A DNA stretch of 64,000 nucleotides from Alphaproteobacteria bacterium. Its GTDB lineage: Bacteria > Pseudomonadota > Alphaproteobacteria > Rickettsiales > SXRF01. Under the pieces are notes generated by a model. It searched no databases. It was not told where the DNA came from and saw nothing but the letters and a program-made list of their open reading frames with translations. Below, piece by piece: positions 873 through 51,206 of this stretch (the stretch's first letter is position 1; the number at the start of each line of letters is the position of its first letter). Made by a program: the position numbers and the translations under genes. The stretch spans positions 114,168 to 178,167 of the forward strand of contig JANYES010000019.1 in the NCBI GenBank assembly GCA_025362975.1, in the 5' to 3' direction.

Positions 873-947
<75 letters not shown>

Positions 948-1063
948 GTTTCTCTCCCCCAAACAACGCAATTCATTAAAGAAAGGCAGCGATTAAACTT
1001 ATTGATCGCAAACGCTTATCTATGGTAGAATAAAGTTATCAGCTATTCTTCAGCAGGGTTTTC

Positions 1064-1372
1064 ATGCGCGCACTCACCACACACATTAAGGCCATCAGCC
1101 AAACGCTTGCTTTGACCAGCCTGTTCCTGGTCGCAGCGACGCCGTCCGCCTTTGCCTTTACATGCCTACCAAACGGCGAAAGCGTCATCATCTGCGGCTG
1201 TACCTCAGATGCAGATTGCCCCATCGGTTCGACGTGCAACATTGGTACTATGCAATGCCAGGCTGCTATCGAGTCGGCCACCACCCCTGAAATGTCCGAC
1301 TATGCTGCCATGACCTTCATCCTCGCTGCCAGTGGCGTCATGGTGTATTTACGCCGCAGGGCATTGCAATAA
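1064..1372 (+). CDS. Small secreted six-Cys protein with PEP-CTERM-like C-terminal sorting signal
   Basis: Signal peptide ending SAFA; C-x9-C-x-C-x5-C-x5-C-x6-C core; TPEMSDY motif + hydrophobic helix + RRR; exosortase gene follows 22 bp downstream. Confidence 0.8.
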   Translation: MRALTTHIKAISQTLALTSLFLVAATPSAFAFTCLPNGESVIICGCTSDADCPIGSTCNIGTMQCQAAIESATTPEMSDYAAMTFILAASGVMVYLRRRALQ

Positions 1373-1394
1373 CCCCAACCTATTTTATCCGTCC

Positions 1395-2369
1395 ATGAAG
1401 GCGCCTGACTGTTTTAACACGCCTTTTATGCTTCACCTGCGCCGGGTTTGCAAAAGCGGCGGGGTGTCGCTGGCGATCGCACTGGCCTATTTCGCTTTTT
1501 GCGCGCTGAACGGGGAGTGGCATTTCGTTCAGGTGCATGCCCAGCATGTGGCGCCCCGCGCCGTGGAATTCGCCCCTATTCCGATCATGTTTATCCTGTG
1601 GGTGCGAGCGGTGGAGCAAAAAACGCCGTTTCAATTGCGTTTCTCCCCTATCGCGACTGGCCTGTGCGCGCTTGCGCTGGTGCTGATGAACAGCAACATT
1701 GATGCGGCGCCGCTGCCGCGCTGTACATTTTTGGCGGCGATACTGAGCAGTTTATTCGTGTTCGTACCATTTAAACAGGTGATACGGCAAATCACACAGA
1801 ACAAGCGCCTGAGCGTCGTAGCGCTCATCGGCGCCACCTCGGCGGTGAATTACTACTGGCTGATGCTGACCATCTGGTTCGCCATGTGCCGGTGGACGAC
1901 GATGGGGGCGTATGCCCTGCTGAAACTTCTCGACCTGAACGCCGTCGCCGTCGTCCACCCGATCACGGATACCACCATCGCCCTGATTTCAAGATATTTT
2001 CAGGTATGGGTCAATATCGGCTGCAATGGACTGGAGGGCGTGTTCCTGTTCAACTTCATGCTGGCGGCGACGCTGTTGTTCGACTGGAAGCTCCTGCACA
2101 AATACAGCATCACGCTGCTGTTTTGCACCGGCGTGCTGTACATGTTCTTGATGAACGTGTTGCGCATCACGGTCTTCTTCATTATCGGCTACTGGGCCTA
2201 TAAGCCCGGCGCATGGAGTTTCATGCATCTGTTGCAAGGAGCGCCCCTTGCGCTGTTCCATTCCTATGTCGGCTGGGTGTTTTACCTGTTCGCCTTTGCC
2301 CTGTTCATGGGGCTGCTCTATAGCCCACCTAACGTTAAAAAGTTAAAGTCACTTTTTCGGCATAAATGA
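1395..2369 (+). CDS. Exosortase/archaeosortase family protein (XrtE-like core, no CAAX-protease domain)
   Basis: Multi-TM protein with the Cys-Arg-His triad contexts GCNGLEG, MNVLRI and FHSYVGW; ATG at 1395 chosen because 1332 overlaps the upstream gene. Confidence 0.85.
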   Translation: MKAPDCFNTPFMLHLRRVCKSGGVSLAIALAYFAFCALNGEWHFVQVHAQHVAPRAVEFAPIPIMFILWVRAVEQKTPFQLRFSPIATGLCALALVLMNSNIDAAPLPRCTFLAAILSSLFVFVPFKQVIRQITQNKRLSVVALIGATSAVNYYWLMLTIWFAMCRWTTMGAYALLKLLDLNAVAVVHPITDTTIALISRYFQVWVNIGCNGLEGVFLFNFMLAATLLFDWKLLHKYSITLLFCTGVLYMFLMNVLRITVFFIIGYWAYKPGAWSFMHLLQGAPLALFHSYVGWVFYLFAFALFMGLLYSPPNVKKLKSLFRHK

Positions 2370-2498: not shown

Positions 2499-5400
2499 AT
2501 GCCAACTGACCTACAGATACGCGATGGGATTTTCGACAACGCCACGTTAGAAGTTGCGAAAAAGTTCAAAACGCTGTTCACCAAGATGCAAGCCTCCTTG
2601 CCCGCTGGCACCAAGCCGCCGACGGATAAAGAATATCTTGTAATGGCCGCGCAGGCGATCAAGGATCGTAAGATCACCTTCCCGGGCGACTCCGGCAAAG
2701 CCATTAAAGAAATGAACGGCAGCGAAACCGTCGAACTGTCAACGCTCGACGAGCTGATGGACGAACAGCAGAAAAAAGACTTGGGCGGCAAACCGTCCGA
2801 CCTCGTTCCCCTGACCGAAGATTTAGAAGAAGTGGCGCGCGTCGCCCAGCGTTCGGTTAAAAAAGCGCAAGGCCCGTTCAGCATCATGGGCGCCAGCATT
2901 TTCACGCTTATCAGCGCGCTGTTCGAAGCCCTCGGTGATCTGTTCGCCGGTAAAATCGAAGGCGGCATCGGCGGGTTCTTCAGCCATGTTAAAAAAATCG
3001 CCGCCGAACGCACCGGTGAAGAAGCATCGGAAAGCTTCGAAACCGGCCTGACCGCCCTTTCAAGGCAAAATCCCCGCATCGGCGCATGGCTGACGCCTGA
3101 CGCTATTTCCGCCGCCGGTGCTGGCATGCGCGATCAGGCTCGCGTCGCAGGTGGCGCGCCCGCAGGCAAAAATGCTGAACAGCAGCTCGCCGAACTCAAT
3201 CCCGGCAGCCACTACACCAGCCTCGTCACTGGCCATGCCCACGGCATGATCCGCGACAGCGTCGGCAAGGACATGCTCGACGTGGTCAAAGGCGCTGTCG
3301 GCGTCGATGGCAAGCCGAGCATCATCGGCATGGGTAAAGCCCTCCTCGGCTTCGCACCGCGCCCCGAAGACGCGGTGAAGTTCACCGACACCGTTTCCGC
3401 CACCATCGCCCGCGTCACCACCGACCCGGCCTACAAATACAACGGCAAGAACGAACGCCTCATCGCCGAACTCAAAATTAAAAAACCCGGCCAACTGAGC
3501 ACGGAAGACATGCAGGTGCTGCTGAAAGAAGAAGTCGGCAACGACCTTCGCACCCTTAAACCCGGTTTCTTCTCCTTTACGCTGAGTAATGAGCACATCA
3601 CCGCCATCGCCGACAAAGTACCTGAATATGTCACCAAAAACGAAACTATGCTGCGGGAGCTTAGCAAACGTGTGACCGACAGCACACGCCCGCCGCTGGC
3701 TCCCGGCGGCCCCGTGCCCGTTCCGGCCGGCCCCGGCGCAGGCCCTGTTACTCCAATCGTTCCGGGCGGCACCGGCACCTCAGCTCCCGACGGCGCTGGT
3801 ACTCCGGCTCCGGGCACCCCAGCTCCAAGCACGACCGTCGATTACGCTAAAGTTAAAATCGCCCTCGAAACCACCTTCGACGGCACGAAAGACGAAATGC
3901 TCAAAGGCATGCAGGCGCAAGCCGCCAAAGGCGTCGTCATTGCCGCCGACGACCCGTTCTTTGCTGCGACTCGCGAGCAGTTTGTCAAAAAAGGCCTCGA
4001 AGTGGCCAAAGAACGCCCTGAATTATTGCAACCCGGCCAGCAGGCCGCCTTTGCACAGGCTATTACCGATAAAATGATGGCTGACACCGCCTTCCGTGAA
4101 GTGGCGGGCGCTAAGCTGCGCCAGATCAAACCGGTGCTCGACAATCCAAGTAAGATCAACTTCGCCCTCAAAAAACTGGCGGAAACGACGGCACCGCAGC
4201 TTACAGTAGCGCTGAACAACCCAACCGTCGTCGCTGCTTTCGCTAGCGCGATCACCACGACCACCCCGATTGCAGCCGCTCCGTCGATACCCGCCGCTCC
4301 GGTTCCGGGTGGCGCAGCTCCCGGAACCGCTCCCGCTTCGCCGCCTGTTGCTGGCACCCCACCCTTGCCCGCACCGCCTGTTGGCCCTTCCGGCACTCCC
4401 GGCGCTGGCTCCGGCAGCACGCCTTCCGCTCCGCCCGTCGAGCTCAGCGCACAGGATCTGATCGATTTGTTCAAAGGCGAAATCGAAATCAAAATGAACG
4501 AAACGCTGGCCGATAAAAAACCGGACGGCACCTCAAACCCCTCCGCCGAAATCTTCAACAAGATGACCGGCCTCAATAAAACTCCGCCTGCCGATCGTGG
4601 CGCAGCGCGCGCAACCATCATCGCGCCGTTTGCTAATTCGATCGCCACCAGCGGCATCGTCGTTACCAGCGACAATCCGGGCGGCCTGTTCGTGCTCGAT
4701 GCCGACGCGGGCAAGCTTAAATTCAAGGACGAAGCCGTTTTAACCAGCCCGGAAAAAGCCTTCGAGGTTTTTGCCGAAGCCAAGAAACGCATCACCGCCA
4801 AGTTGCGCGCTGACAACCCAGCCGCCACGCCTGAAACCCTGAAACTCTACGATTCGATGGCCGAAAACACCGCCATGCAGACGGTGAATAAAGCCCTCGA
4901 AGATGCTGAAAAACCGCGTCTCAACATTAAAACCGACCCGCGCCTCGCCGTCGCCCAGACCGAAATGGCCCGCACCTACCTCACCGCTGAAATCGAAGAC
5001 GGCTTCAAAAAAGACCCGAGTACCAACATGCTGGGCCTTGGCGTTGGCGGCGGTGCCGACCGCATGAAACTGATCGCCAGTAAAGCCGCGGCCGCCCTCG
5101 CTCCGCTGCTGGTCGTGGAAAACACCGACCCTGCCGCCCTGAAAGACGCCATCGACAAAGCGCTTTCCACCGGCGAAGGCGCTATCACCGATAAGGACAA
5201 ACGCGCCCTTGTGGTCGACGGTATCAGCAAATCCCTCATCGAGCGTATGAAAGGCCCAAAATCGCCCGAACAGGAAGCGCAGGATAAAATCCGCAACCTC
5301 GACGAAGCGACCCGCATCGTGCGCGACAAAATTGGCAAAGATGCCGATGCCGCCTTCGCGCCGCTCAAAGACATCATGAAGGCCGAAATCAAAGCTGGCG

Positions 5401-5927
5401 ATATCTGGCTCGACCCTAGCAAAATGTACTGGCCCGCCAGCGCCGCCGCCCGCAGATTCAAGCCGCAGGCCGACGCCTTTGTCGACAATAAGGTCGATCA
5501 GGAAGTCGATGCTTATTATAACCGCATCAACCGCACCGCATTGAAAAAAGTCTTCTCCGACGCCGCCGTCGAAGCCGCGCAAGCCACCTATGACGGCCGC
5601 CAGTTCTTCGAACTCTCCGATGAAGAAAAGAAACAAACGGTCGCCGATCGCGTTTCCGCCAAGCTCAACGACGGCAAAACCTTCGAAGGCATCTTCCCGA
5701 ATCCGAAAATCACTATCGGCTCCATCGGCAGTTTCAATATCGGCACGGTCGATTATGAAATGGCTGGCCAGAAGCAAAAAATCATCGGCATGCTGACCCA
5801 GAAAGTCAAAGACAGCATGAACTTCGCAGCCGCCACTCCGGACGTGGATCCAACGCATGCCGATCCTCTGGCGCCGCTGTTAACCCCCGATGTGCGCGCC
5901 GGTCTCGGCGCTGTTCGCACGGCTTAA
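2499..5927 (+). CDS. Large hypothetical protein (1142 aa), helical domains separated by Pro/Ala/Gly-rich linkers
   Basis: Long ORF with host-like codon usage and AGGA RBS; amphipathic/hydrophobic segment near aa 125-165; no recognisable family. Confidence 0.8.
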   Translation: MPTDLQIRDGIFDNATLEVAKKFKTLFTKMQASLPAGTKPPTDKEYLVMAAQAIKDRKITFPGDSGKAIKEMNGSETVELSTLDELMDEQQKKDLGGKPSDLVPLTEDLEEVARVAQRSVKKAQGPFSIMGASIFTLISALFEALGDLFAGKIEGGIGGFFSHVKKIAAERTGEEASESFETGLTALSRQNPRIGAWLTPDAISAAGAGMRDQARVAGGAPAGKNAEQQLAELNPGSHYTSLVTGHAHGMIRDSVGKDMLDVVKGAVGVDGKPSIIGMGKALLGFAPRPEDAVKFTDTVSATIARVTTDPAYKYNGKNERLIAELKIKKPGQLSTEDMQVLLKEEVGNDLRTLKPGFFSFTLSNEHITAIADKVPEYVTKNETMLRELSKRVTDSTRPPLAPGGPVPVPAGPGAGPVTPIVPGGTGTSAPDGAGTPAPGTPAPSTTVDYAKVKIALETTFDGTKDEMLKGMQAQAAKGVVIAADDPFFAATREQFVKKGLEVAKERPELLQPGQQAAFAQAITDKMMADTAFREVAGAKLRQIKPVLDNPSKINFALKKLAETTAPQLTVALNNPTVVAAFASAITTTTPIAAAPSIPAAPVPGGAAPGTAPASPPVAGTPPLPAPPVGPSGTPGAGSGSTPSAPPVELSAQDLIDLFKGEIEIKMNETLADKKPDGTSNPSAEIFNKMTGLNKTPPADRGAARATIIAPFANSIATSGIVVTSDNPGGLFVLDADAGKLKFKDEAVLTSPEKAFEVFAEAKKRITAKLRADNPAATPETLKLYDSMAENTAMQTVNKALEDAEKPRLNIKTDPRLAVAQTEMARTYLTAEIEDGFKKDPSTNMLGLGVGGGADRMKLIASKAAAALAPLLVVENTDPAALKDAIDKALSTGEGAITDKDKRALVVDGISKSLIERMKGPKSPEQEAQDKIRNLDEATRIVRDKIGKDADAAFAPLKDIMKAEIKAGDIWLDPSKMYWPASAAARRFKPQADAFVDNKVDQEVDAYYNRINRTALKKVFSDAAVEAAQATYDGRQFFELSDEEKKQTVADRVSAKLNDGKTFEGIFPNPKITIGSIGSFNIGTVDYEMAGQKQKIIGMLTQKVKDSMNFAAATPDVDPTHADPLAPLLTPDVRAGLGAVRTA

Positions 5928-13131: not shown

Positions 13132-16100
13132 ATGTCAAGCACGACAACGCCCACACCATCACCGGCAACGCCGCTCGCGACACCGCCGGACGATGAAAAG
13201 AAATCCCGCTCCCGGTGGATGATGATCATCGGCGCCGTTCTCGGCGGCGGTTTAGGCATCTTCACCGGCGGTATCGGCGGTGCGATTATCGGCTTGCTCA
13301 CCGGCCTGATGGGCGGCTTCGCCGCGCAGGAAATCTCGAACCAGTACGGCAAACCCGCCGCTGGCAGTAACCCCACAGCGCCCACAGGCCTTCCCGCCCC
13401 CGGCGTCCCGGGCGATGGCAAGGACGGCCCCGCAGGCCCCGATCAGAGCACCCTGCTCAAAGACGCGCAAAAAGTTTTCGCTGAAGGCCAGGTAGTCGAT
13501 CCGAATAATCCGTACGACCCGAGCAACCCCGCCTCGCGCCTGAAAGTCAACGACCCGACCGTGCCGACGCTCGCCATAACCGGGCTTGCGATGGCCCTGC
13601 AGCGCGGCCTTGTGCAGCCGAGGGTCAACGGCCTGCTGGAATTTACCCGCATCAACCCCATCACCCGCTGGGTCACCGGCAAGCTAGGCACTCCGCGTGA
13701 ACTTGGCTTGCGCAATGGTCTCATGCCGGGTTTGTGGGCCACGCCTGAAGGCATCAAGGAAAACGCCATCAAGGCGCTTGAAGACATCAAGGCCCGCGAA
13801 GCCAACCCAAAACTCTCCGCCGCCGAAAAGCTGGCGACCAAAGCCGAAGCCAAAGCCATGAAGCGCGCCACCGGCAGCAGCGCCGTTAAAGGGCTGATGA
13901 ACGGAACGCGCGATATCGATCCGATGCGCGCGCGTCTTGGCGCCTATTACAGGGAAAACCCGACCCTGTTGCGTCAGTTCTGGAACGAAACCACAGGCCT
14001 TACCGGAGCACCCGTTGAAGACATCAAAGTCACCGCCCCCACCGAACCGGGCGGCGCACCCGGAGTCGTTGTTGACAGTGGCGGCGACGTCATCCGCATT
14101 ACGCCCGAGGGCAGAAGCGAGTTTGTCGACCCCAAAAGCGCGCCCAAAGGCGTGCGCGTCAGCTACAGCGCCGCCGGCGAATCGGCTACCTACATTCTCG
14201 ACCCCGAGCTGGAACTCGGCAAATTCACCGAAAAATTTCCCGAGCTGAAAGCAAGCGTGCGCGCCGCGCTCATTGAAGAAGCCACCGTCGCCATCAAAGC
14301 CCACGCTGAAAAAATGCCCACCGGCCTCGACCGCCATGTCGCCCAAGCCCGCGCTGTCGCCGAAGCTACCGTGGCTATCGACAAAGTACTGTCGCGCCCT
14401 GCGGGTGCGCCTCAGGACGTAAGCGTCCGTTCTTTGCGCACCAGCGTCAGCGAAATCATCAAAACCAACACCGGCATCACCCCGGCTCCCGAACCTGTTC
14501 CCGCCGCCGTGAAACCCACCGCACCCGGCGCCACGCCGACTGAACCCGCAGCCAAAGTTCCCGAGCCAGTGAAACCCGCAACCGCGCCCGAACCGGCTGC
14601 GACTAAACCGGTCGAACCTGCTAAAATCGCCGGTCCAGAGCTAAAAACCGCCACCAAAACCGGCTTCGATTCCGCCTCCGGCAAGGAAGTCACCCGCACC
14701 ATCTACACCATCGACCTGAAAGAAAAGGGCAAAGCCCTCATCGCTGTCGAAAAAGCCGATCCCGCCTACGGTGAAAACATCTATCGCAGCACCACCAAAG
14801 GCCCGGGCGGCGAATACCAGCATTACTCCGTCAAAGACGGCGCCGTCAAGCCGATCACCCCGTCGAAAGCAGCCTTCAATGTCATCGACCTCAGCGGTCT
14901 TGAAGAAGGCTTCGCTGGCAGGGTCGAACACCAGCTTTCGCCGGTCAACGAACCGGCGCGCAGCGTCAGCCCCGTTCCCGCCGAAGAAGGCCTTGGCGCC
15001 AATATTTTCCGCGATGAAAACGGCCGTTATTTCCGAGCCGAAAAACTCCCCGGTGCTGCCGATTATACCGTCACCGAAACGACCGCCACGCTCGAAGTCC
15101 GCCAGCTCGAAGCCTTACGCAACGCCGGTCTCAAAAACGCCAATACAATTACCGATGTGATGAAAACCCTGACCGACCCCACGCAGGACCCCGCCGTGCG
15201 CGCCATGCGCGGCAAGCTCTCACCCGAGCAGCTTAAAGTTATCGCGCAGGAATACGACGCGGCCCTCACCCGCGGCGAAAAACCCGCCAGCACTTACTTA
15301 ACCGAAAAAGTCACCCAAGCCGGCAATATCCCGGGCGTCCAGCCTGAAACGACACCGGAACCCGCAGCTGCCGCCAAACCCGGCAAGCCGGTCAACCCGC
15401 TGAAACCGACCGCCGCCGGTGCGGTTGCTAAACTGCTCGTCACCGAAGGCAGCATGGTCGATGCCGATGGCAAAACCGTCACCAACCGTACCTTCTCGAT
15501 GATGGAAAAAGGCAAGCCTGTATCGCTTGAACTGGCCCCCGCCGAAGAAGGCATCGGCAACAACGTTTACCGCACAAAAACCACAGGCGCTGCCGAACCC
15601 ACCTATTACCGCAGCACCGATGGCGAACTGACCCCGATTAAAAAACCTGCCACCTCCACCTTCTCCTCCACCGACATCGTCGGCGGCGGCGTCGATACGC
15701 GCATCAGCATCGAAGGCCGCAGCTCGATTGAGGTCTTCAAGGTCAAAGGCGCTGCCGTGGGCCTCGGCGAAGAAGTCTACAGCTCGCAGGACGGCTCGCA
15801 TATCTACCGCGTCCTCGAGGGTAAAAAAGCCGACGGCACCCCGCTCGGCGGGAAAACCGTCAGCGAAATCACCACCACGCCCGAAGGCGTGCGCGCCAGC
15901 GAAATCCTGCGCATGCCACACGGCAAAACCGTGATGGAACACTTAACCGAAACCCTCGCCGCCAAAGACATCAAGCCGCTCGCTGAAAAGCTGAGCCCGG
16001 CGCAGGTCAAAGAAATCGCCGAAATGTACAGTAAAGCGCTGGAAGTCGAATCCACCGGCGGCAAAACGGCGGGCAATGATTTCCTCGCCAAAAAAATTAC

Positions 16101-19100
16101 GGGGGTCGCCTCGCGCGAGCCTGTTAAAGCCCCGGAAACTGTACCTGAATCCGTCAAACCCGCCGCCACTGACCCGCTGAAACCGACTGCCGCCACCGCC
16201 GCGCGCCCCTCACCGGTTAAAATCAGCCCGACGCTGGTTACCAAATCCACTACCAGCTTCGATACCGCTACCGGCAAAGAAGTCAGCACCACAAGCCATT
16301 TCGTCGACCCGAAAGACGGCACCGCCCCCATCGCCGTTGAAAAAGTTCCTGCCTCGGAAAATCTTGGTCAGAACACCTACCGCACCAAAGCCGCGCCCGG
16401 CAGACCACAGCAATATTTCTCCGGCGAAAGCGAACTCAAACCGATCTCACGCCCGATGCCGTCGGACTTCACCTCCGCCGACACCAGCGCCCTCGGCGGC
16501 ACGAAAGAATTCACCCTGCGCCCGGTCAACGAAGCTGAAATCCCGGTCGTCAAAGTTCCGCCGGAAGCAGGTCTCGGCGAGGGCATGTTCAAAAATGCCG
16601 AAGGCACGCGCTTCTTCCGCGTCAATGAAGGCGCACCTAAAGGCCAGCAGGTCACCGAAGTCACCAAAGCGCCCGAACTCAGCCACCTTGAGCCGATCCG
16701 CACCTTGCAGCTTGCCAACCCAACCGAGGTCATGGCCCATATCAGCGAAACCTTCAACGCCACTACCCACGCGGACGTCCTCGCCCTGCGCGGCAAGCTG
16801 TCGCCGGAACAAATCCAGCGCCTCGCCGTTGAATACGATAAAGTCCTCGAAGCGGGCAAAGCCACCGGCACCAAACCGCCGCACGATTTCCTCACCACCC
16901 GCGTGCGCGCTATCGCTGCCGAACCGGCAACCGTGGTGACCCCGGCGGCCGCTACGGGCGCTGCCATCAAACCGAACACCTGGGGCACAAAAGGTGCCGT
17001 CAACCAGCGAGGCGGTGGCTGGGGCATGCACATCTTCGCCACTGGCATGGGCGCTAAATCCTTAAACGAGCAGATGAGCGAATACCGCAAGCTCGACCCG
17101 AAAGACCCCGCCTATGAAGCCAAAGCCGCCAGCCTGCGCCACGATATGTATATCAGCGGCGGCATGACCGGTATGGGCGGCAGCGGTATGGCCATTGAAC
17201 TCGCCTCCGCCCGCCAGATGGCCAACGTCCAGCGCGCCGTGACCGCCGGTACGATGGATGCCAGCGCCCTCAGCCGCGTCACCCCGCTCACCCGTGCTTC
17301 AGGTGGCCTCGGCGTCGCCGGTGGCGGCCTGACTATCATTCAGGGTTACGATCATCTCAAACATGCCAAAGACGAAGACACCGAAATCGGCAAAAACGCC
17401 GCCACCGCCACCGGCTGGACCGAAATCGCCGCAGGCAGTTATTTCACCGGCGCGGGCGTTGCGACCGTCGCAGGCTTCGGCAGCGCTGGCTGGGTCGCCG
17501 CGGCGGGTCCAATTGGCGTCGTTCTCATCGGCGTCTCTATTTACAGCGATCTTGTCGTCGGTGCACTCAAGGACTGCGAACGCGCTTCCACGGAATTTTC
17601 CACCTTCGGTCGCATAACCATGTCGGCGCGCGCGCAGCCAGCGGTCAATGAAAAGGGCTATAACGAGTTTATCACGCAGCTCAAACCGGACCCCGCTAAT
17701 CCAAGCAAAGAACCGGGCATGCCGAAGCTCAGCATGTACAAGAACCTCACCACCGCGTCCCACGCGATCAACGAGCTCGCCCGCAGCGCCGGTCCGAGCC
17801 TGTCGGATCCGAGCGTCAACAAGATGGACTTCTTCCTCGACGAGTCCGCCTCGCCGGAACAGATCCGCAAGAGCATCGACTGGGCCCGCAAGGAACTTAA
17901 AGCCGTGCAGGAAAAAGTTATCGCCGATAACGGCTTCAACCGCGACGAAGTCCTCGATGCGAAAAAACGCGCCGACAAAATGATCGACGTCCAGAAGCCC
18001 GACGGCTGGTGGTGGCTGCCTGTATACAGCGCCTACGCCGCAGGCAAGATGAACGACCCCGCCGACATTAAAGCGCGCAGAGACTTAGGCAACGGCCTGC
18101 TCGCCATCGACTCGTCGGAAATGGCCCTTGCCTCGCTCGTAGGCGCGGAAAAAGAAGTCTTCGGCGAAGAAGACGTCGGCAGCGGCAGCAGTAAAGGCCG
18201 CGCCTTCCGCGTGCGCCAGCAGACCGGCATCGACACCTTCCAGGATGTCACCCGCGACATCGGCAGCTTGGAAAAAGAAAACCGGCAGCCGATCCGCATG
18301 GTCAGCTACGCCAGCAACTACGAAACCATAAAGAACTACAACCTCCAGCGCGCGCAAGCCGCAAAAAAAGTAGCCGACACCGTAAAGCAGGACGATCTGC
18401 CGACCATGTCCACCGACGTCAAAATCCTCACCCCGTGGACCCAGCCGGGCGGCGAACGCATCGAAAAAGATGGCAAAGTCACCTTCGCACACGGCTACGA
18501 ATCCATCGGCAATGTCGAGTTGAAATACACACCGGAAATGATGGCGCGCATTACGGCCCATAACGAAAAAGCCGTTACTCTGCGCAAGCGTTTCGACGAT
18601 CTGGAACAAAAAATCCTCGCCCGCATCGAAGTGTTCGAACGAGACGCCATCGTGCGCAAAACCGAAGCGGAACACACCCCGCAAGGCATGACCGCGGTAC
18701 CCGATCACGTCAAAAATGGCGATTTCTATAAGAATAAACTTGCCAAGCGACTCGCCGACTATAAAGGCGTCCAGAACAGCGGTCCGCAGCGTGCCGCAGC
18801 CGTGCGCTACATCCTCGAAGACACATTCGCCAACGCTCCCAAAATGCGCGCCATCATCAACGACACCGCCCTCACCAAAGAGCTCGACCACTACCGCATC
18901 GCCGTTGCCGGCGACGCCAAAGACCCGAGCGCCAAAAGCTTCAAGCAAGAAACCGTCGAACTCGAAAAAGCCATGCTCGACGAACAGGTCCGCATCAACC
19001 GCGAGCAGTTCGAAGCCATGTTCGACCGCGCTGCTACCAAGAACGCCAAAAGCTGGGAAGGCCTGCTCACCGGCAAAACCGACGGCAAGCCCGACCCGAC

Positions 19101-22100
19101 CCGCGCCCGCGTGCTCAAAGCCGACGACAAAGCCGGCGGCACCATGCTCGCAGGCTGGCTGAACAAGGACGAAGAAGTCCGCGTGCTCGCCAAGGCGCAC
19201 AACGCCATGAAGCTCTTGCAGGAGCAGGGCAAGAAAAACATTCACTATAACGAGTTGGGCCTGGAAGACCGCGAACTCGCCATTATCTACAACATCCGTA
19301 AAGCCCGTTCCGACAGCAACCTCTACACCCGCACCGACCGCGGCGCTACCACCGTTAACGGCACAACCTACGGCTCGTACGATTACGTGTTCTACGAAAA
19401 CATGCCTGCCGTGGTGTTCTCCGCCAGCCAGCTCGCCAACGAAGACCTACTCTCCGAAACGCTCGCCACCTCGAACCGCAACGCCATCGTCGCGCAAAAC
19501 GATTTCCTCACCCATCTTGAAAAGAACGGCGTCGCCGATCCGAAACAGGCGAAGTTTATCAAAGAAACCGAAGCCAGCGCCAATGCCTTTGTCGATTGGG
19601 CCAAGGAAATCACCGATGCCGCCATCGAGCGCCAACGCCTTGCCTCCACGCCCGAACAGCGCGAACAGGCCGACCGCGAACGCGAGATGGTCGACCAGAT
19701 GATCGAAACCCGCCAGAATCTGGAGCGCAATTACCAGACCTTTGTGCTTGCCTACGGCAGGAACGAATTCGACGGCCGTAAATTCAATCCGCTGCAAATG
19801 CTCTACGCCGACAAGGTGCAGGAAGGTTCGCTCGAAATGTACGACCCCGCCACGATGCAGAAACGCTTCATCGATACGCTGAGCAAGCTTAACCCGGAAA
19901 CCGCCCGCAAGATCGTTGCCGCCAACGCCAAGCTAAACGCAGCTGGCGGCCATCTCGACGTCCAGACCGACACAATGGCGCTGCCCACCAATGACAACAT
20001 CCCGCAGCTTGCCCAGAAATCGGCCTATAAAACGCGCACCGAATTCCGCCATAAATCCCTTGTCATTACCGGTCTGGCTTCGCTTGGCGATGGCAAAAGC
20101 ACCATGCCGGCCAGCATTATCCTCGGCCAGGCGGGTGAATACATCACCGGCAATCTGGGCATCTTCGCCAGCAAAGACCGCGACGATCTCACCCGCCTCG
20201 TACAGGCTAAATACGACGTCACCCGCGCCGAAGCCGAAGACATGGTCGATAAAGTCTCGCAGATGTTCACCAAGGACGCACGCACCGCGCAGGATCTCAC
20301 GTGGAACGTTATCGACCCCGCCAAGCTCGAAAACGCCTACGAGATGGCAAGGAACCATAACACGCTGATGACCGCCGTCATCAACAAATTCGCCGATGAA
20401 AACAAACCCGCCCGCCTCACTATCGAAACCACGTTCAAGGCCATCGCGGGCCATCCGCTCGAGCAGCAATTCCTGCAATTCCTGGAAAAAACCAAGATGC
20501 CGAAAGACCTCAACTCGTTCTACAACTTCACCGGAACGCCGGAGTTCATAGCCTACGAGAAAAAGTACAACGAAGAGCAGGCCGCTGGCGCCAAAGCCAA
20601 GCTCGAAGAGTTCATGAAGACCGATCCGGTCGTCGCTGGTTACGAGAAATTCCGCATCGCCAAAGGCTATCAAGGCAACACGATGGACATGTACATCGAA
20701 TACGCCAACACGCCGGGCTTCGAAGCCATTATCGAACAGCGCACCACCGAACTGGCCGACACCTACAAGCGCTTGAGCGACAACTACCGTAAAGTCGCGG
20801 GCGAGTATTTCGATTCGCCTGAAATGAAGGCGCTCAAAGTCAATGATCCGAAGCGCTATGAAGATGCTATCAGCGATTACCACCGCTTCCCCCGAACCCC
20901 CGCCCCCAAACAGGAATGGGGCAACGCGGGCATCTATCTAGAACGCGTGAAAGAGTTCAAGAAAAACGATGCCGCCATCGGCAAGCTCCCGGCCGAACTC
21001 AAGACCAAGCTCACCGCACTTGCCGCCCTTCCGTCCGACGTAAAGCTGCTGCAGGCGAAAGCCTTCCTTGGCCTCACCGCAGGCACCGAATCGCAAGATC
21101 CGCGCCTCGTCAAAGGCATTGATATGGCTGTCAACCACAATGGCAAGCTGATCAACGGCGCTACAATCCAATATGCGCCTAATAGTACTGCCTACAAGTT
21201 CTACGATTCCTCAAATCTCGTGCCGGTCCTCGGCGATGACAGGCTGATCGCTTCGCTCACCGGCATCGACACGCTGGTGATGAAACAGGGACAGGCCGTC
21301 GGCGGCAGCTATGCCAACGGCGACCAGCTCGACGAATTCGCTAAGCTCGGCTTCACGCAGCGCCGCATGCGCATCCTCGAAAGCGTGTCCGCACAGCTTA
21401 CAAAGGAATTCGCCAACGGCAAAATCCCGCACGTCAAAGAAGACGTGGGCAAACGCTTAGAGCGCGTCAACGCCCTCATCACCCAGTGGAAAGCCCCCGG
21501 CAAACAGCTGCTCACCGCCGAAACAAAAGTGATGGATGGCAACACCACCTACATGAACAGCAGCACCGGCTACGCACAGCGCAACACCGACGTTAACAAC
21601 CCGCTCGCCGCGACGTTCATCACGGTCGATCAAATGGCCAATAAACTGCTGAGCAACACCAAAGACGGCACCGCTCGCTACGGCTTCGCCGAAGTCGAAA
21701 CCTTCGATTACGGCACGATGGTCACCCAGACCAGCAATGCCAAAATCCCGTCGGATGTCATGCTGGCCGCGCTGAAACTCGCCGACCAGAAAATCCAGAA
21801 ACAGATAAAGGAAACGATTACCCGCCGCACCAAGGGTGTCGACGCCGCCACCGACGCGGCGATCTCCGGCCTCGACGTGACCAAAATTCGCGCCTCGCTG
21901 AAAGCCAAGGAAGAAAAGATCGACGCCGATATCGTCAAAGTGAAAGACCAGATCGCTAAATTCAAAGACGAAGCCAAGGAACTCGTCCTCAAGAAAAAAG
22001 CCCTCGAGATGAAGCTTTCCGATCCTGACGAGAAAGTCAAAGCGCAGGCCGCCAAAGACATCGAGGCCCTCGACGAACGTGCTGAAAATGTTGATACCCA

Positions 22101-22962
22101 GCGCTCTCTGGCCGAAGACAAGCTCACGCGCGGCTGGCGCGACGACAAGGACGGTAAAGGCGACCCTGAAGACGTCGCAAGCCTTGAATCTCAGAAGGCC
22201 GATATCCTCGTGCAGTACGACGCCGGGAACCTCACCCGCCAGCGCCTTGAACTCATCAACGACAAGGCCTTTGCTGAAGACTCACTGCTCTACGAAATGC
22301 ACAGAGTCCGCGAATTCCGACAGCAGACGCTGGAACGCTACGGCGTGAACCTCGCCGAAGGCGACCAGTTGCTTACCGAAGCCGAAGTCGCTGCCATGAA
22401 CACCGCCGCCGCCAGCGCCGTCATCCATATGAGCACCTACATCGACGACCTCAAGAAATACGGCATCGTCGAACGCAAAACCGGCATGACCGACGAGCAA
22501 TACGACGATGCGGTCTATGAGGAGGCCAAGTACAGGTTCGGCAACCGCATAGAAAGTGTCTCCAAAGCGATCAACGATCTGGAGCTTGACGGCCGCGAAT
22601 ACGATTTGACCGCCGACCAGAAACGCGCCATCGGCAATCTGATCAAATTCTCCGATCGCTACAGCGACGATATGAAACACCCGGAAACCAAGCTGGCGCT
22701 GCGAAATTCGGTCGCCAAGGTCTTCGGCACCCAGGACTTCGTGGCCTCCGCCAACACGCCCGCACCGGCCGTGGGCCTGACCGCGCAGACCACTCAGGTG
22801 GGTGCGGCCACCATGGGTAACGAATCACTGGATATCGGCCGCTCGCTGCTGTCGTTGCTCAGTGGCACCACCAAGCCAGGCGAACAGCCCGTTTCCGGCA
22901 CATTCCGGCCCGACCTGCCGTCAGGTGCCGTCAAGAAGCCGGAAAAGGGCCAGCTGACCTAG
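13132..22962 (+). CDS. Giant hypothetical protein (3276 aa), candidate secreted effector/toxin or surface protein
   Basis: Uninterrupted 9.8-kb ORF with AGGA RBS; N-terminal Gly zipper, three ~230-aa repeats, Gly/Ala-rich hydrophobic region, C-terminal coiled coil. Confidence 0.85.
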   Translation: MSSTTTPTPSPATPLATPPDDEKKSRSRWMMIIGAVLGGGLGIFTGGIGGAIIGLLTGLMGGFAAQEISNQYGKPAAGSNPTAPTGLPAPGVPGDGKDGPAGPDQSTLLKDAQKVFAEGQVVDPNNPYDPSNPASRLKVNDPTVPTLAITGLAMALQRGLVQPRVNGLLEFTRINPITRWVTGKLGTPRELGLRNGLMPGLWATPEGIKENAIKALEDIKAREANPKLSAAEKLATKAEAKAMKRATGSSAVKGLMNGTRDIDPMRARLGAYYRENPTLLRQFWNETTGLTGAPVEDIKVTAPTEPGGAPGVVVDSGGDVIRITPEGRSEFVDPKSAPKGVRVSYSAAGESATYILDPELELGKFTEKFPELKASVRAALIEEATVAIKAHAEKMPTGLDRHVAQARAVAEATVAIDKVLSRPAGAPQDVSVRSLRTSVSEIIKTNTGITPAPEPVPAAVKPTAPGATPTEPAAKVPEPVKPATAPEPAATKPVEPAKIAGPELKTATKTGFDSASGKEVTRTIYTIDLKEKGKALIAVEKADPAYGENIYRSTTKGPGGEYQHYSVKDGAVKPITPSKAAFNVIDLSGLEEGFAGRVEHQLSPVNEPARSVSPVPAEEGLGANIFRDENGRYFRAEKLPGAADYTVTETTATLEVRQLEALRNAGLKNANTITDVMKTLTDPTQDPAVRAMRGKLSPEQLKVIAQEYDAALTRGEKPASTYLTEKVTQAGNIPGVQPETTPEPAAAAKPGKPVNPLKPTAAGAVAKLLVTEGSMVDADGKTVTNRTFSMMEKGKPVSLELAPAEEGIGNNVYRTKTTGAAEPTYYRSTDGELTPIKKPATSTFSSTDIVGGGVDTRISIEGRSSIEVFKVKGAAVGLGEEVYSSQDGSHIYRVLEGKKADGTPLGGKTVSEITTTPEGVRASEILRMPHGKTVMEHLTETLAAKDIKPLAEKLSPAQVKEIAEMYSKALEVESTGGKTAGNDFLAKKITGVASREPVKAPETVPESVKPAATDPLKPTAATAARPSPVKISPTLVTKSTTSFDTATGKEVSTTSHFVDPKDGTAPIAVEKVPASENLGQNTYRTKAAPGRPQQYFSGESELKPISRPMPSDFTSADTSALGGTKEFTLRPVNEAEIPVVKVPPEAGLGEGMFKNAEGTRFFRVNEGAPKGQQVTEVTKAPELSHLEPIRTLQLANPTEVMAHISETFNATTHADVLALRGKLSPEQIQRLAVEYDKVLEAGKATGTKPPHDFLTTRVRAIAAEPATVVTPAAATGAAIKPNTWGTKGAVNQRGGGWGMHIFATGMGAKSLNEQMSEYRKLDPKDPAYEAKAASLRHDMYISGGMTGMGGSGMAIELASARQMANVQRAVTAGTMDASALSRVTPLTRASGGLGVAGGGLTIIQGYDHLKHAKDEDTEIGKNAATATGWTEIAAGSYFTGAGVATVAGFGSAGWVAAAGPIGVVLIGVSIYSDLVVGALKDCERASTEFSTFGRITMSARAQPAVNEKGYNEFITQLKPDPANPSKEPGMPKLSMYKNLTTASHAINELARSAGPSLSDPSVNKMDFFLDESASPEQIRKSIDWARKELKAVQEKVIADNGFNRDEVLDAKKRADKMIDVQKPDGWWWLPVYSAYAAGKMNDPADIKARRDLGNGLLAIDSSEMALASLVGAEKEVFGEEDVGSGSSKGRAFRVRQQTGIDTFQDVTRDIGSLEKENRQPIRMVSYASNYETIKNYNLQRAQAAKKVADTVKQDDLPTMSTDVKILTPWTQPGGERIEKDGKVTFAHGYESIGNVELKYTPEMMARITAHNEKAVTLRKRFDDLEQKILARIEVFERDAIVRKTEAEHTPQGMTAVPDHVKNGDFYKNKLAKRLADYKGVQNSGPQRAAAVRYILEDTFANAPKMRAIINDTALTKELDHYRIAVAGDAKDPSAKSFKQETVELEKAMLDEQVRINREQFEAMFDRAATKNAKSWEGLLTGKTDGKPDPTRARVLKADDKAGGTMLAGWLNKDEEVRVLAKAHNAMKLLQEQGKKNIHYNELGLEDRELAIIYNIRKARSDSNLYTRTDRGATTVNGTTYGSYDYVFYENMPAVVFSASQLANEDLLSETLATSNRNAIVAQNDFLTHLEKNGVADPKQAKFIKETEASANAFVDWAKEITDAAIERQRLASTPEQREQADREREMVDQMIETRQNLERNYQTFVLAYGRNEFDGRKFNPLQMLYADKVQEGSLEMYDPATMQKRFIDTLSKLNPETARKIVAANAKLNAAGGHLDVQTDTMALPTNDNIPQLAQKSAYKTRTEFRHKSLVITGLASLGDGKSTMPASIILGQAGEYITGNLGIFASKDRDDLTRLVQAKYDVTRAEAEDMVDKVSQMFTKDARTAQDLTWNVIDPAKLENAYEMARNHNTLMTAVINKFADENKPARLTIETTFKAIAGHPLEQQFLQFLEKTKMPKDLNSFYNFTGTPEFIAYEKKYNEEQAAGAKAKLEEFMKTDPVVAGYEKFRIAKGYQGNTMDMYIEYANTPGFEAIIEQRTTELADTYKRLSDNYRKVAGEYFDSPEMKALKVNDPKRYEDAISDYHRFPRTPAPKQEWGNAGIYLERVKEFKKNDAAIGKLPAELKTKLTALAALPSDVKLLQAKAFLGLTAGTESQDPRLVKGIDMAVNHNGKLINGATIQYAPNSTAYKFYDSSNLVPVLGDDRLIASLTGIDTLVMKQGQAVGGSYANGDQLDEFAKLGFTQRRMRILESVSAQLTKEFANGKIPHVKEDVGKRLERVNALITQWKAPGKQLLTAETKVMDGNTTYMNSSTGYAQRNTDVNNPLAATFITVDQMANKLLSNTKDGTARYGFAEVETFDYGTMVTQTSNAKIPSDVMLAALKLADQKIQKQIKETITRRTKGVDAATDAAISGLDVTKIRASLKAKEEKIDADIVKVKDQIAKFKDEAKELVLKKKALEMKLSDPDEKVKAQAAKDIEALDERAENVDTQRSLAEDKLTRGWRDDKDGKGDPEDVASLESQKADILVQYDAGNLTRQRLELINDKAFAEDSLLYEMHRVREFRQQTLERYGVNLAEGDQLLTEAEVAAMNTAAASAVIHMSTYIDDLKKYGIVERKTGMTDEQYDDAVYEEAKYRFGNRIESVSKAINDLELDGREYDLTADQKRAIGNLIKFSDRYSDDMKHPETKLALRNSVAKVFGTQDFVASANTPAPAVGLTAQTTQVGAATMGNESLDIGRSLLSLLSGTTKPGEQPVSGTFRPDLPSGAVKKPEKGQLT
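14640..16925 (+). repeat. Three diverged ~230-aa intragenic repeats separated by Pro/Ala/Thr linkers
   Basis: Recurring D..(S/T)GK.V, P.EEG(L/I)G.N.(Y/F)R (twice per unit) and KLSP(E/A)Q...(I/L)A..Y...L motifs in the translation. Confidence 0.8.
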
Positions 22963-49874: not shown

Positions 49875-51206
49875 ATGAGTAAGGCGATTTTACGGGAACT
49901 ATTCAACCACGATTTTTCCGATACCGCAAACCCTGCCGAGTTTTCCAAGCGTTTTTTTGCAAAAACGCTTGTCGCGGGCGATTTGCGCAAAATCTGCCAT
50001 GAGATGATGGCAGCCAGCGTGACCCTCGACGGCAAGGAAATCCCGGCCGCAATGCGCATTCCCGGCAAATCCTCCGACCACCCCTACGCCATCCTCGCCC
50101 AGCTCCACGGCAACGAACCCGCAGGTCTTGCCGGTATTTTGCTGGCGATGGCACTTTCAAGCGCTGGCTTGCTGGAACGCGACGTCATCGCCGCCATCGG
50201 CAACCCGCTCGCCGCCCGCCAGTATTTCGAAGCGTTAGAGAAAAACCCGCCTACACGGCAGGAAACCCGCGACGCCTTCCGCTGCGGTCTCAGCGACACT
50301 GGCGATTTACTGCCGGATATGAACCGCATCCCCGTCGATTTCCTCACCCGCAACCCCGATAACCACCACACCAAACGCGCGCAGGAACTTCACGCCATCG
50401 GCAAGCATATCTGGGGCATGGTCGACATCCATTCCGCGCGCGGCAACATGCTATGCATCACCGATTACAAACGCATCACGGATTTAAAAGATTCGCCCAT
50501 ACGCGCAGTGCTCACGGGCCTCGCCGAAGCCATCTCCGCCCACGCCTCCGGCAACGTCACCGTCCAGACTCTCAAAACCATTTTCGGCACGCTGTTTCAC
50601 GACGAAATGGAAAGCCAGACCGGCATCGAAGCAGGCCGCCATGAAGACCCCGCCGCGCCCTACAATGCCGCCAGCTTCACGTTGTCACTGTTACATACGC
50701 TCGGCCTCACCTCCGTCTCTCCCATCTACGTACAGGAAAACGGCATTTTCGAAGGCTATCACGTCAACCCGCGCATCACCTACGCTGACCTACATTACGG
50801 CGACACTCTTCGCGCCCACGATCAGGTATTCATGGCCAAGACCTGCCAGTCGCTCGCCTCCGTACCAGAACGTTCTGACAGCGTAATCGTCAAGCAATCC
50901 GAAGACATCTACGCCATCCAGACCGTTGCCGACTTCACCAGAAAACCCGCAGGCACGATGGAATATGCCGTCTACCAATACGATGAAATGGAGTCGATTG
51001 AAAAAGATCAGGTTGTCGCCGTCGCCGTACCTTCCGGAACCGCTTTCACCGCTCCAAAGAAATTCTCGGGCATTTTCCTAAGTAAATCCGCCGCCCTCTA
51101 CGACAAAGACCCGAGCGTTGGCCCGTGGCCCGTGCACGCCGATCACATCGCCAGCATCAAATTCTGCTACCCGTGCGAGGTGTCGGATTTGAAGATCGAT
51201 TTCTAA
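49875..51206 (+). CDS. Succinylglutamate desuccinylase/aspartoacylase family protein (AstE-like)
   Basis: HGNEPAG, GNP.A, DMNR, VDIHS and IEAGRH M14-type zinc motifs; next to astB. Confidence 0.75.
   Translation: MSKAILRELFNHDFSDTANPAEFSKRFFAKTLVAGDLRKICHEMMAASVTLDGKEIPAAMRIPGKSSDHPYAILAQLHGNEPAGLAGILLAMALSSAGLLERDVIAAIGNPLAARQYFEALEKNPPTRQETRDAFRCGLSDTGDLLPDMNRIPVDFLTRNPDNHHTKRAQELHAIGKHIWGMVDIHSARGNMLCITDYKRITDLKDSPIRAVLTGLAEAISAHASGNVTVQTLKTIFGTLFHDEMESQTGIEAGRHEDPAAPYNAASFTLSLLHTLGLTSVSPIYVQENGIFEGYHVNPRITYADLHYGDTLRAHDQVFMAKTCQSLASVPERSDSVIVKQSEDIYAIQTVADFTRKPAGTMEYAVYQYDEMESIEKDQVVAVAVPSGTAFTAPKKFSGIFLSKSAALYDKDPSVGPWPVHADHIASIKFCYPCEVSDLKIDF

Follow-up and report, generated by a model that had tools for sequence, protein, structure and literature searches.

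In the PEP-CTERM/exosortase systems (XrtA and XrtB; models TIGR02595 and TIGR03109/TIGR03113), the enzyme is polytopic, bears the TIGR04178 signature, conserves Cys, Arg and His residues and is matched with substrates that carry an N-terminal signal peptide and a tripartite tail, which opens with Pro-Glu, abuts a helix and continues into an Arg cluster. Cys, Arg and His form what is suspected to be the exosortase family's catalytic triad according to the Haft preprint (10.1101/2023.06.07.544157), which also describes dedicated sorting systems, with enzyme and target adjacent, as a recognised category. Both the pairing of exosortases with cognate tripartite signals and the existence of dedicated one-to-one systems are already known (10.1101/2023.06.07.544157). 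Here, we describe a locus at positions 1064-2369 of a 64,000-nucleotide stretch of the alphaproteobacterial contig JANYES010000019.1 (the window), which encodes a 102-aa miniprotein with a PEMSDY-containing tail and, immediately downstream, an exosortase-family enzyme. We read it as a two-gene, one-to-one sorting module in which the PEMSDY-tailed precursor would be cleaved by the adjacent enzyme, a reading to which the sequence evidence lends a probability of roughly 0.8.

The locus resembles the PEP-CTERM systems in all the features listed above and differs from them in that PEMSDY replaces PEP and that one enzyme serves one substrate, whereas PEP-CTERM systems have many. Unlike the XrtA and XrtB systems, the pair is accompanied by neither an exopolysaccharide (EPS) locus nor an EpsI domain, the enzyme does not match the XrtA/XrtB models, and the substrates are only about 90-160 aa long. 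With the JDVT-CTERM system and its myxosortase-like protease, as presented in the preprint, it shares a single target per genome, a target gene co-operonic with that of the enzyme and a sporadic taxonomic distribution; however, the enzyme is an exosortase here and a CPBP/Rce1-like protease there, and the PEMSDY motif contains no invariant Cys (10.1101/2023.06.07.544157). XrtE and its VPEID-CTERM substrates have in common with the pair an exosortase-family core and a PE-containing signal, but the window enzyme, of 324 aa, has no fused protease domain by Pfam and its substrate motif is different. Finally, XrtD/VPLPA-CTERM, which is present in the same genome and belongs to the same superfamily, served as an in-genome positive control: XrtD, which has an EpsI domain fused to it, matches its own model, while the window enzyme scores on the generic signature alone.

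An exosortase-family enzyme and its PEMSDY-tailed neighbour

The enzyme gene (1395..2369, + strand) encodes a protein that passes the generic exosortase/archaeosortase signature TIGR04178 (26 bits, cut-off 23), the sole NCBIfam model that it matched. None of the named Xrt, Crt and Art subfamily models of NCBIfam 20.0 was matched even at E<=10. The model library does recognise named subfamilies, since the XrtD of the same genome (contig C21:171446-174715) reached 554 bits on its own model TIGR04152 (cut-off 400, E 3.2e-166). We searched 1.84 billion representatives exhaustively with HMMER, which returned 216 proteins at E<=1e-3, 88 at E<=1e-10 and 34 at E<=1e-30, with a tight group of about 13 scoring above 190 bits. 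All 35 aligned relatives matched TIGR04178, and eight positions were invariant in the 35-sequence alignment: C210, G212, G215, W231, N254, R257, H289 and G293. They include the three residues of the suspected triad, as the sequence-only reading of this DNA had claimed, namely the proposed nucleophile Cys210 (codon tgc, 2022..2024) in GCNGLEG, Arg257 (cgc, 2163..2165) in an N-x-L-R motif and His289 (cat, 2259..2261) in FHSYVGW. The AlphaFold2 (AF2) model of the enzyme, built from 14 sequences, was polytopic and helical, in line with the roughly eight helices of superfamily members, with long helices across residues 10-309 (predicted local distance difference test, pLDDT, 82.2; predicted template modelling score, pTM, 0.81). 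Foldseek searches of the Protein Data Bank with this model gave no match at E<=0.001 (best template modelling scores 0.15-0.20), and 29 of the 30 matches of an ESM Atlas feature search were Exosortase_EpsH clusters. The enzyme is a divergent member of the exosortase/archaeosortase superfamily.

The same reading had likened the enzyme most closely to XrtE, and this kinship was rejected: the XrtE model TIGR04162 gave no match to the enzyme at E<=10 and matched weakly only 3 of the 35 relatives (best 3.2e-9). Equally weak matches to XrtH (20 relatives, best 1e-7), ArtC (15) and XrtX (10) were commoner. Because the enzyme matches the signature only and its relatives match subfamily models weakly, we assign it to an unnamed subfamily. 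An in-frame GTG at 1332 provides an alternative start for the enzyme gene.

The miniprotein gene (1064..1372, + strand, stop included) has the architecture that had been described from the sequence. Residues 1-31 (1064..1156) form a putative signal peptide, with a basic n-region, the hydrophobic stretch LALTSLFLVAA and AFA preceding the proposed cut; they are followed by a mature core (residues 32-74, 1157..1285) with Cys at 34, 44, 46, 52, 58 and 65 (C-x9-C-x-C-x5-C-x5-C-x6-C). The PEMSDY motif (residues 75-80, 1286..1303) leads into a hydrophobic transmembrane segment (residues 81-96, 1304..1351) and a C-terminus made of the basic cluster RRR (97-99) and ALQ (1352..1369). The stop codon lies at 1370-1372 and the ATG of the enzyme at 1395, leaving a gap of 22 nt, and a tRNA-Gly(GCC) gene lies upstream. 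In the AF2 model of the miniprotein (pTM 0.35), the confident parts were confined to a helix at residues 5-24 in the signal-peptide region, a tail helix at 77-101 (pLDDT about 92) and a small beta-hairpin in the core (56-59/64-67), the latter with moderate pLDDT. The core resembled the Cys-rich repeat TIGR04201 weakly, below threshold (18.1 bits, cut-off 25).

A profile of eight PEMSDY proteins retrieved 25 clusters from a collection of 5.8 billion proteins, 24 of them in addition to the window's own. All members were 86-157 aa long and were unnamed or labelled 'hypothetical protein'. The sequence-only reading had raised the comparison of tail with core among such neighbours, and it gave a clear outcome: PEMSDY was unchanged in all 28 aligned proteins and in all 25 database proteins, and the cores varied. 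P75, E76, M77, S78, D79, Y80, A82 and R97 were invariant in the 28-row alignment, R98 and Ala31 were each kept in at least 90% of the rows, and the database proteins gave the tail consensus [VT]-PEMSDY-LAMAF-hhh-AGG-MIYY-h-RRR. Mean pairwise identity was 63% across the tail, from PEM to RRR, versus 21% for the remaining protein. As for the core, the signal-peptide rule yielded four Cys in 11 proteins, six in 13 and eight in one, an even count in 25 of 25; the remaining three proteins, read directly, were also even (four in L013, eight in the second protein of L023, six in L025). Such even counts agree with disulfide pairing in a protein exported by Sec, and genes of the DsbA and DsbB families occur in the same genome.

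The claim that the sorting motif lies outside the named families also held, since no CTERM model of NCBIfam release 20 reached its cut-off on any of the 28 PEMSDY proteins, for which a generic LPXTG-type anchor came closest (E 0.014-0.1). Ten enzyme-adjacent partners likewise gave no CTERM match at cut-off. PEP-CTERM (TIGR02595, cut-off 16 bits) produced four weak matches in the genome, none over cut-off, and no match at the PEMSDY tail even at E<=10, and MYXO-CTERM (TIGR03901) reached 9.2 bits at the tail against a cut-off of 20, PEMSDY being devoid of the invariant Cys of the MYXO-CTERM motif. That the 102-aa frame arose by chance, or that its tail is a poorly scored PEP-CTERM, MYXO-CTERM or other named signal, is therefore refuted despite the shortness of the frame and the weak MYXO-CTERM match, given the 24 further relatives with an invariant PEMSDY and the failure of the named models.

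Pairing of tails and enzymes across loci

Loci around enzyme homologues were drawn from relatives of the window's own genome, from one genome per species and from metagenome contigs. A PEMSDY-tailed small protein adjoined the enzyme in all seven loci whose enzyme was at least 39% identical to that of the window (the window itself, L013, L023, L024, L025, L026 and L027). The PEMSDY gene was directly upstream and on the same strand in six of them and divergent in L024. In L023, two PEMSDY proteins (1556-1975 and 3652-4101) flanked a single enzyme, the second just downstream of it, so that the relation is not always strictly one-to-one. A scan of the genome for further tails, which the sequence-only reading had also pointed to, bore out the proposed single pair: among 43,277 own-genome frames of at least 40 aa, the tail hidden Markov model (HMM) found the window protein alone (63.6 bits, next 11.0). 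Measured against the dedicated systems of the preprint, the locus thus shows an adjacent target in every close locus and a single tail of its kind in its genome, with L023 having two targets (10.1101/2023.06.07.544157). The PEMSDY pairs recur in a few uncultured bacteria, represented by metagenome-assembled genomes labelled Pseudomonadota. As a side observation, N-terminal extensions of about 230-280 aa, with conserved Cys and a VNG motif, occur in several of the PEMSDY-clade enzymes (L024 1290-2798 and L026 1733-3397; proteins P0009, P0010, P0012 and P0013) but not in the window enzyme.

Beyond the close loci, 24 of the 34 enzyme loci examined contained, within the retrieved region, a neighbour with a PE[ML] tail. 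We estimated the chance rate with a loose filter for a C-terminus made of PE[ML], a hydrophobic stretch and basic residues, which accepted 26 of the 50,898 frames between stops in the genome of 3.26 Mb, or about one in every 125 kb. At this rate, 34 loci of about 5 kb would yield roughly one or two matches by chance, and the occurrence of PE[ML] tails beside enzyme homologues exceeds chance.

Three tail flavours were found among the enzyme loci: PEMSDY, VPE[ML]P and PELPxxxGPF. The VPE[ML]P flavour occurred in relatives of the same taxonomic family; the proteins that bear it are short and have few Cys or none (L005, L007 and L029). The PELPxxxGPF flavour accompanied a more distant enzyme clade and was carried by Cys-rich proteins of about 100-135 aa, in records mostly labelled Bdellovibrionota or 'Deltaproteobacteria' (L016 was labelled Pseudomonadota). 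In a 30-row enzyme tree with XrtD as the outgroup, whose rows are mutually related and whose deep order is made unsafe by the long outgroup branch, the enzymes of the PEMSDY loci formed one clade of seven rows (Shimodaira-Hasegawa-like approximate likelihood ratio test 99). When mapped on this tree, the tail labels required 8 changes, compared with a mean of 17.3 after shuffling, and none of 200 shuffles was as low. Adjacency, single-copy pairing and the match of tail flavour to enzyme clade were thus directly observed. A complex prediction with the enzyme alignment and tail residues 60-102, run without controls, scored 0.02 against a mark of 0.32 and is evidence neither way.

The PELP loci (L014-L016, L018, L019, L033-L038, L040 and L041) have the PELP protein directly downstream of the enzyme in most cases and on the opposite strand in L015 and L016. 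These proteins end in CC...PELPxxxGPF, a helix and a basic tail, and the two tested against NCBIfam were unmatched. In L020, a Cys-rich 135-aa protein (1188-1595, - strand), 1.4 kb from the enzyme homologue and on the opposite strand, has RELP in place of PELP ahead of its helix and could be a further variant.

The genome itself encodes two exosortase-signature genes besides the window enzyme. One is XrtD, and a 135-aa frame on contig C5 (- strand, ending at 50817) with a VPLPA-like tail is likely to be its substrate. The other, on contig C27 (7913-9473, - strand; L002/L010), encodes a 379-aa paralogue that is 31% identical to the window enzyme and matches TIGR04178 only (32.8 bits). Directly downstream of it, on the same strand, a 97-aa open reading frame (ORF) ends in VPEMP, a helix and a basic tail; its core has no Cys, one Cys follows the basic tail and the helix contains a Pro. 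This ORF was the only other strong match in the genome of an HMM built from all tails (49.0 bits), and the two genes constitute a second dedicated pair. The C27 pair is flanked by a 523-aa multi-hydrophobic ORF and a 323-aa ORF.

Proposed maturation and alternative readings

We infer a route for the precursor from the PEP-CTERM/exosortase and PGF-CTERM/ArtA systems as outlined in the preprint (10.1101/2023.06.07.544157); this inference covers its export, disulfides, cleavage and cleavage site, acceptor and role. The 102-aa precursor would be exported by Sec and cut by signal peptidase near Ala31, remaining tethered in the inner membrane through its C-terminal helix with RRR in the cytoplasm. 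Its six Cys would be oxidised in the periplasm to three disulfides. The adjacent enzyme would then recognise PEMSDY together with the conserved helix. Because the AF2 helix starts at Met77, the motif abuts the membrane segment, and a PE motif in this position has been described in the preprint for PEP-CTERM and for signals cut by deeply embedded enzymes (10.1101/2023.06.07.544157). Cys210, with Arg257 and His289, would attack at or near PEMSDY and thereby remove the helix. The acyl-enzyme would be resolved either by water, giving release, or by an acceptor, giving anchoring, so that the product would be a peptide of about 43-48 residues, set free or passed to the acceptor.

Which of these two fates applies bears on the first alternative, in which the enzyme is a hydrolytic maturation protease that frees a disulfide-rich peptide (a signal, an inhibitor or a bacteriocin-like product) and does not anchor it at the surface. 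We regard this as possible, at well under even odds. The predicted mature cores are tiny and hypervariable (26-95 aa by rule, P0173 being omitted because no signal-peptide cut was found), the predicted mature part in L005 and L029 amounts to only a few tens of residues and has no Cys, and no acceptor-synthesis or EPS genes were seen in the module, either in the window or in L013, all of which would suit a released peptide. However, the studied exosortase and archaeosortase substrates stay cell-associated, as reported in the preprint (10.1101/2023.06.07.544157), and nothing in the data separates release from transfer.

Several points weigh against the sorting module. The loci and proteins are mutually related, so that the counts given above do not represent independent events. 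Ten of the 34 enzyme loci lacked a PE[ML]-tailed neighbour (L006, L017, L020 with its RELP variant, L021, L022, L028, L030-L032 and L039, where the contig end cuts the locus). The enzyme reached 20.5 bits with Pfam Exosortase_EpsH (PF09721; residues 62-308, E 3.6e-4), below the gathering threshold of 25.7. The signal-peptide cut near Ala31 was placed by the -3/-1 rule and not by a predictor, and an earlier, cruder rule overshot and left five Cys in the window protein and in L025. Lastly, the conservation of the tail helix could be explained as well by a permanent helix-helix contact as by substrate recognition.

This last point leads to the second alternative, that the miniprotein stays uncleaved as a permanent single-pass subunit or regulator of the polytopic protein, with PEMSDY, helix and RRR serving as the interaction interface. 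In its favour, the tail helix is more conserved than a generic anchor would need to be: the A at +7 was kept in 25 of 25 proteins, the F at +10 in 23 and the two G at +15 and +16 in 21 each. Nevertheless, the retention of Cys, Arg and His in all enzyme relatives argues for catalysis, and the preprint describes, as the hallmark of exosortase substrates, a tripartite tail that sits at the very C-terminus and whose PE motif adjoins the helix (10.1101/2023.06.07.544157). In addition, a fixed tail joined to a hypervariable core fits a cargo better than a subunit. We therefore consider an uncleaved subunit improbable and favour cleavage of the precursor by its neighbour.

Genomic context and significance of the module

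The tRNA-Gly(GCC) gene (873..947, + strand, ARAGORN; Rfam RF00005 at 873-944, 67.3 bits) ends 116 nt upstream of the miniprotein gene. Between them, TTGATC-18-TAGAAT (1002..1031, + strand), with TG ahead of the -10 hexamer and about 33 nt before the ATG, is a weak lead to a promoter, and promoter-like sites were not above chance there (2 found, 1.9 expected from shuffles). RNA sequencing runs were also sought and none was found; the five runs on record, from two studies, were of DNA, and four of them may be sources of this DNA. The same-genus genome G003, which is 100% complete, keeps the order of an SH3-domain protein, DUF1003 and tRNA-Gly, after which unrelated genes follow; synteny with it (L042) ends at the tRNA and no exosortase module comes next. 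Its DUF1003 homologue contains one in-frame TAG in the search output. The enzyme query found no strong match in the three other same-genus genomes searched (none in G001 or in G002, the latter only 79% complete, and a weak one in G003 at E 8.7e-6). Module GC content was 52-57%, compared with 54% for the genome, and no tRNA-derived direct repeat was present in 860-30000. A genomic island at tRNA-Gly was not supported beyond the synteny break, given the genome-like composition and the lack of such a repeat. No integration scar accompanied the module, whose distribution is sporadic.

Directly downstream of the module lies a Pro/Ala-rich ORF of 1142 aa (2499-5927, + strand), which had no Pfam or NCBIfam match and was not conserved beside the module in L013. 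Further away, a 3276-aa ORF (13132-22962, + strand) contains internal imperfect direct repeats, families D1-D12, at 14-23 kb.

The PEMSDY signal, the enzyme subfamily and the cargo class of hypervariable, even-Cys miniproteins are new with respect to the literature as searched. The motif was absent from that literature; the 2012 paper by Haft that is said to have catalogued the exosortase subfamilies lay outside the search, with its supplements, and may already mention the motif or describe related dedicated systems. Because exosortase substrates are recognised by their tails, a new tail flavour exposes proteins that had been labelled 'hypothetical'.

The PEMSDY and PELP branches share a layout in which signal peptide and tail are conserved, while the core between them is hypervariable and contains an even number of Cys. 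The precursors of cone-snail toxins follow this layout. Tentatively, the pair may be one branch of a wholly unnamed superfamily of exosortases, with about 200 protein clusters, in which every member would use a PE[ML]-type tail to mature a miniprotein of its own and thereby supply diversifying disulfide-rich peptides for cell-cell interactions.

At the level of the enzyme family, the module offers a clean minimal system, with one small substrate and one enzyme in about 1.3 kb. Exosortase chemistry remains unresolved between hydrolysis and transpeptidation, according to the preprint (10.1101/2023.06.07.544157), and the 102-aa substrate, whose six-residue motif is invariant, provides a handle for reconstituting and dissecting the catalysis of exosortases. 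A peptide-based function in interactions is hinted at by the hypervariable disulfide-rich cargo and would be new for exosortases. If the wider proposal is true, exosortases would act as follower-peptide proteases, in systems spanning several phyla.

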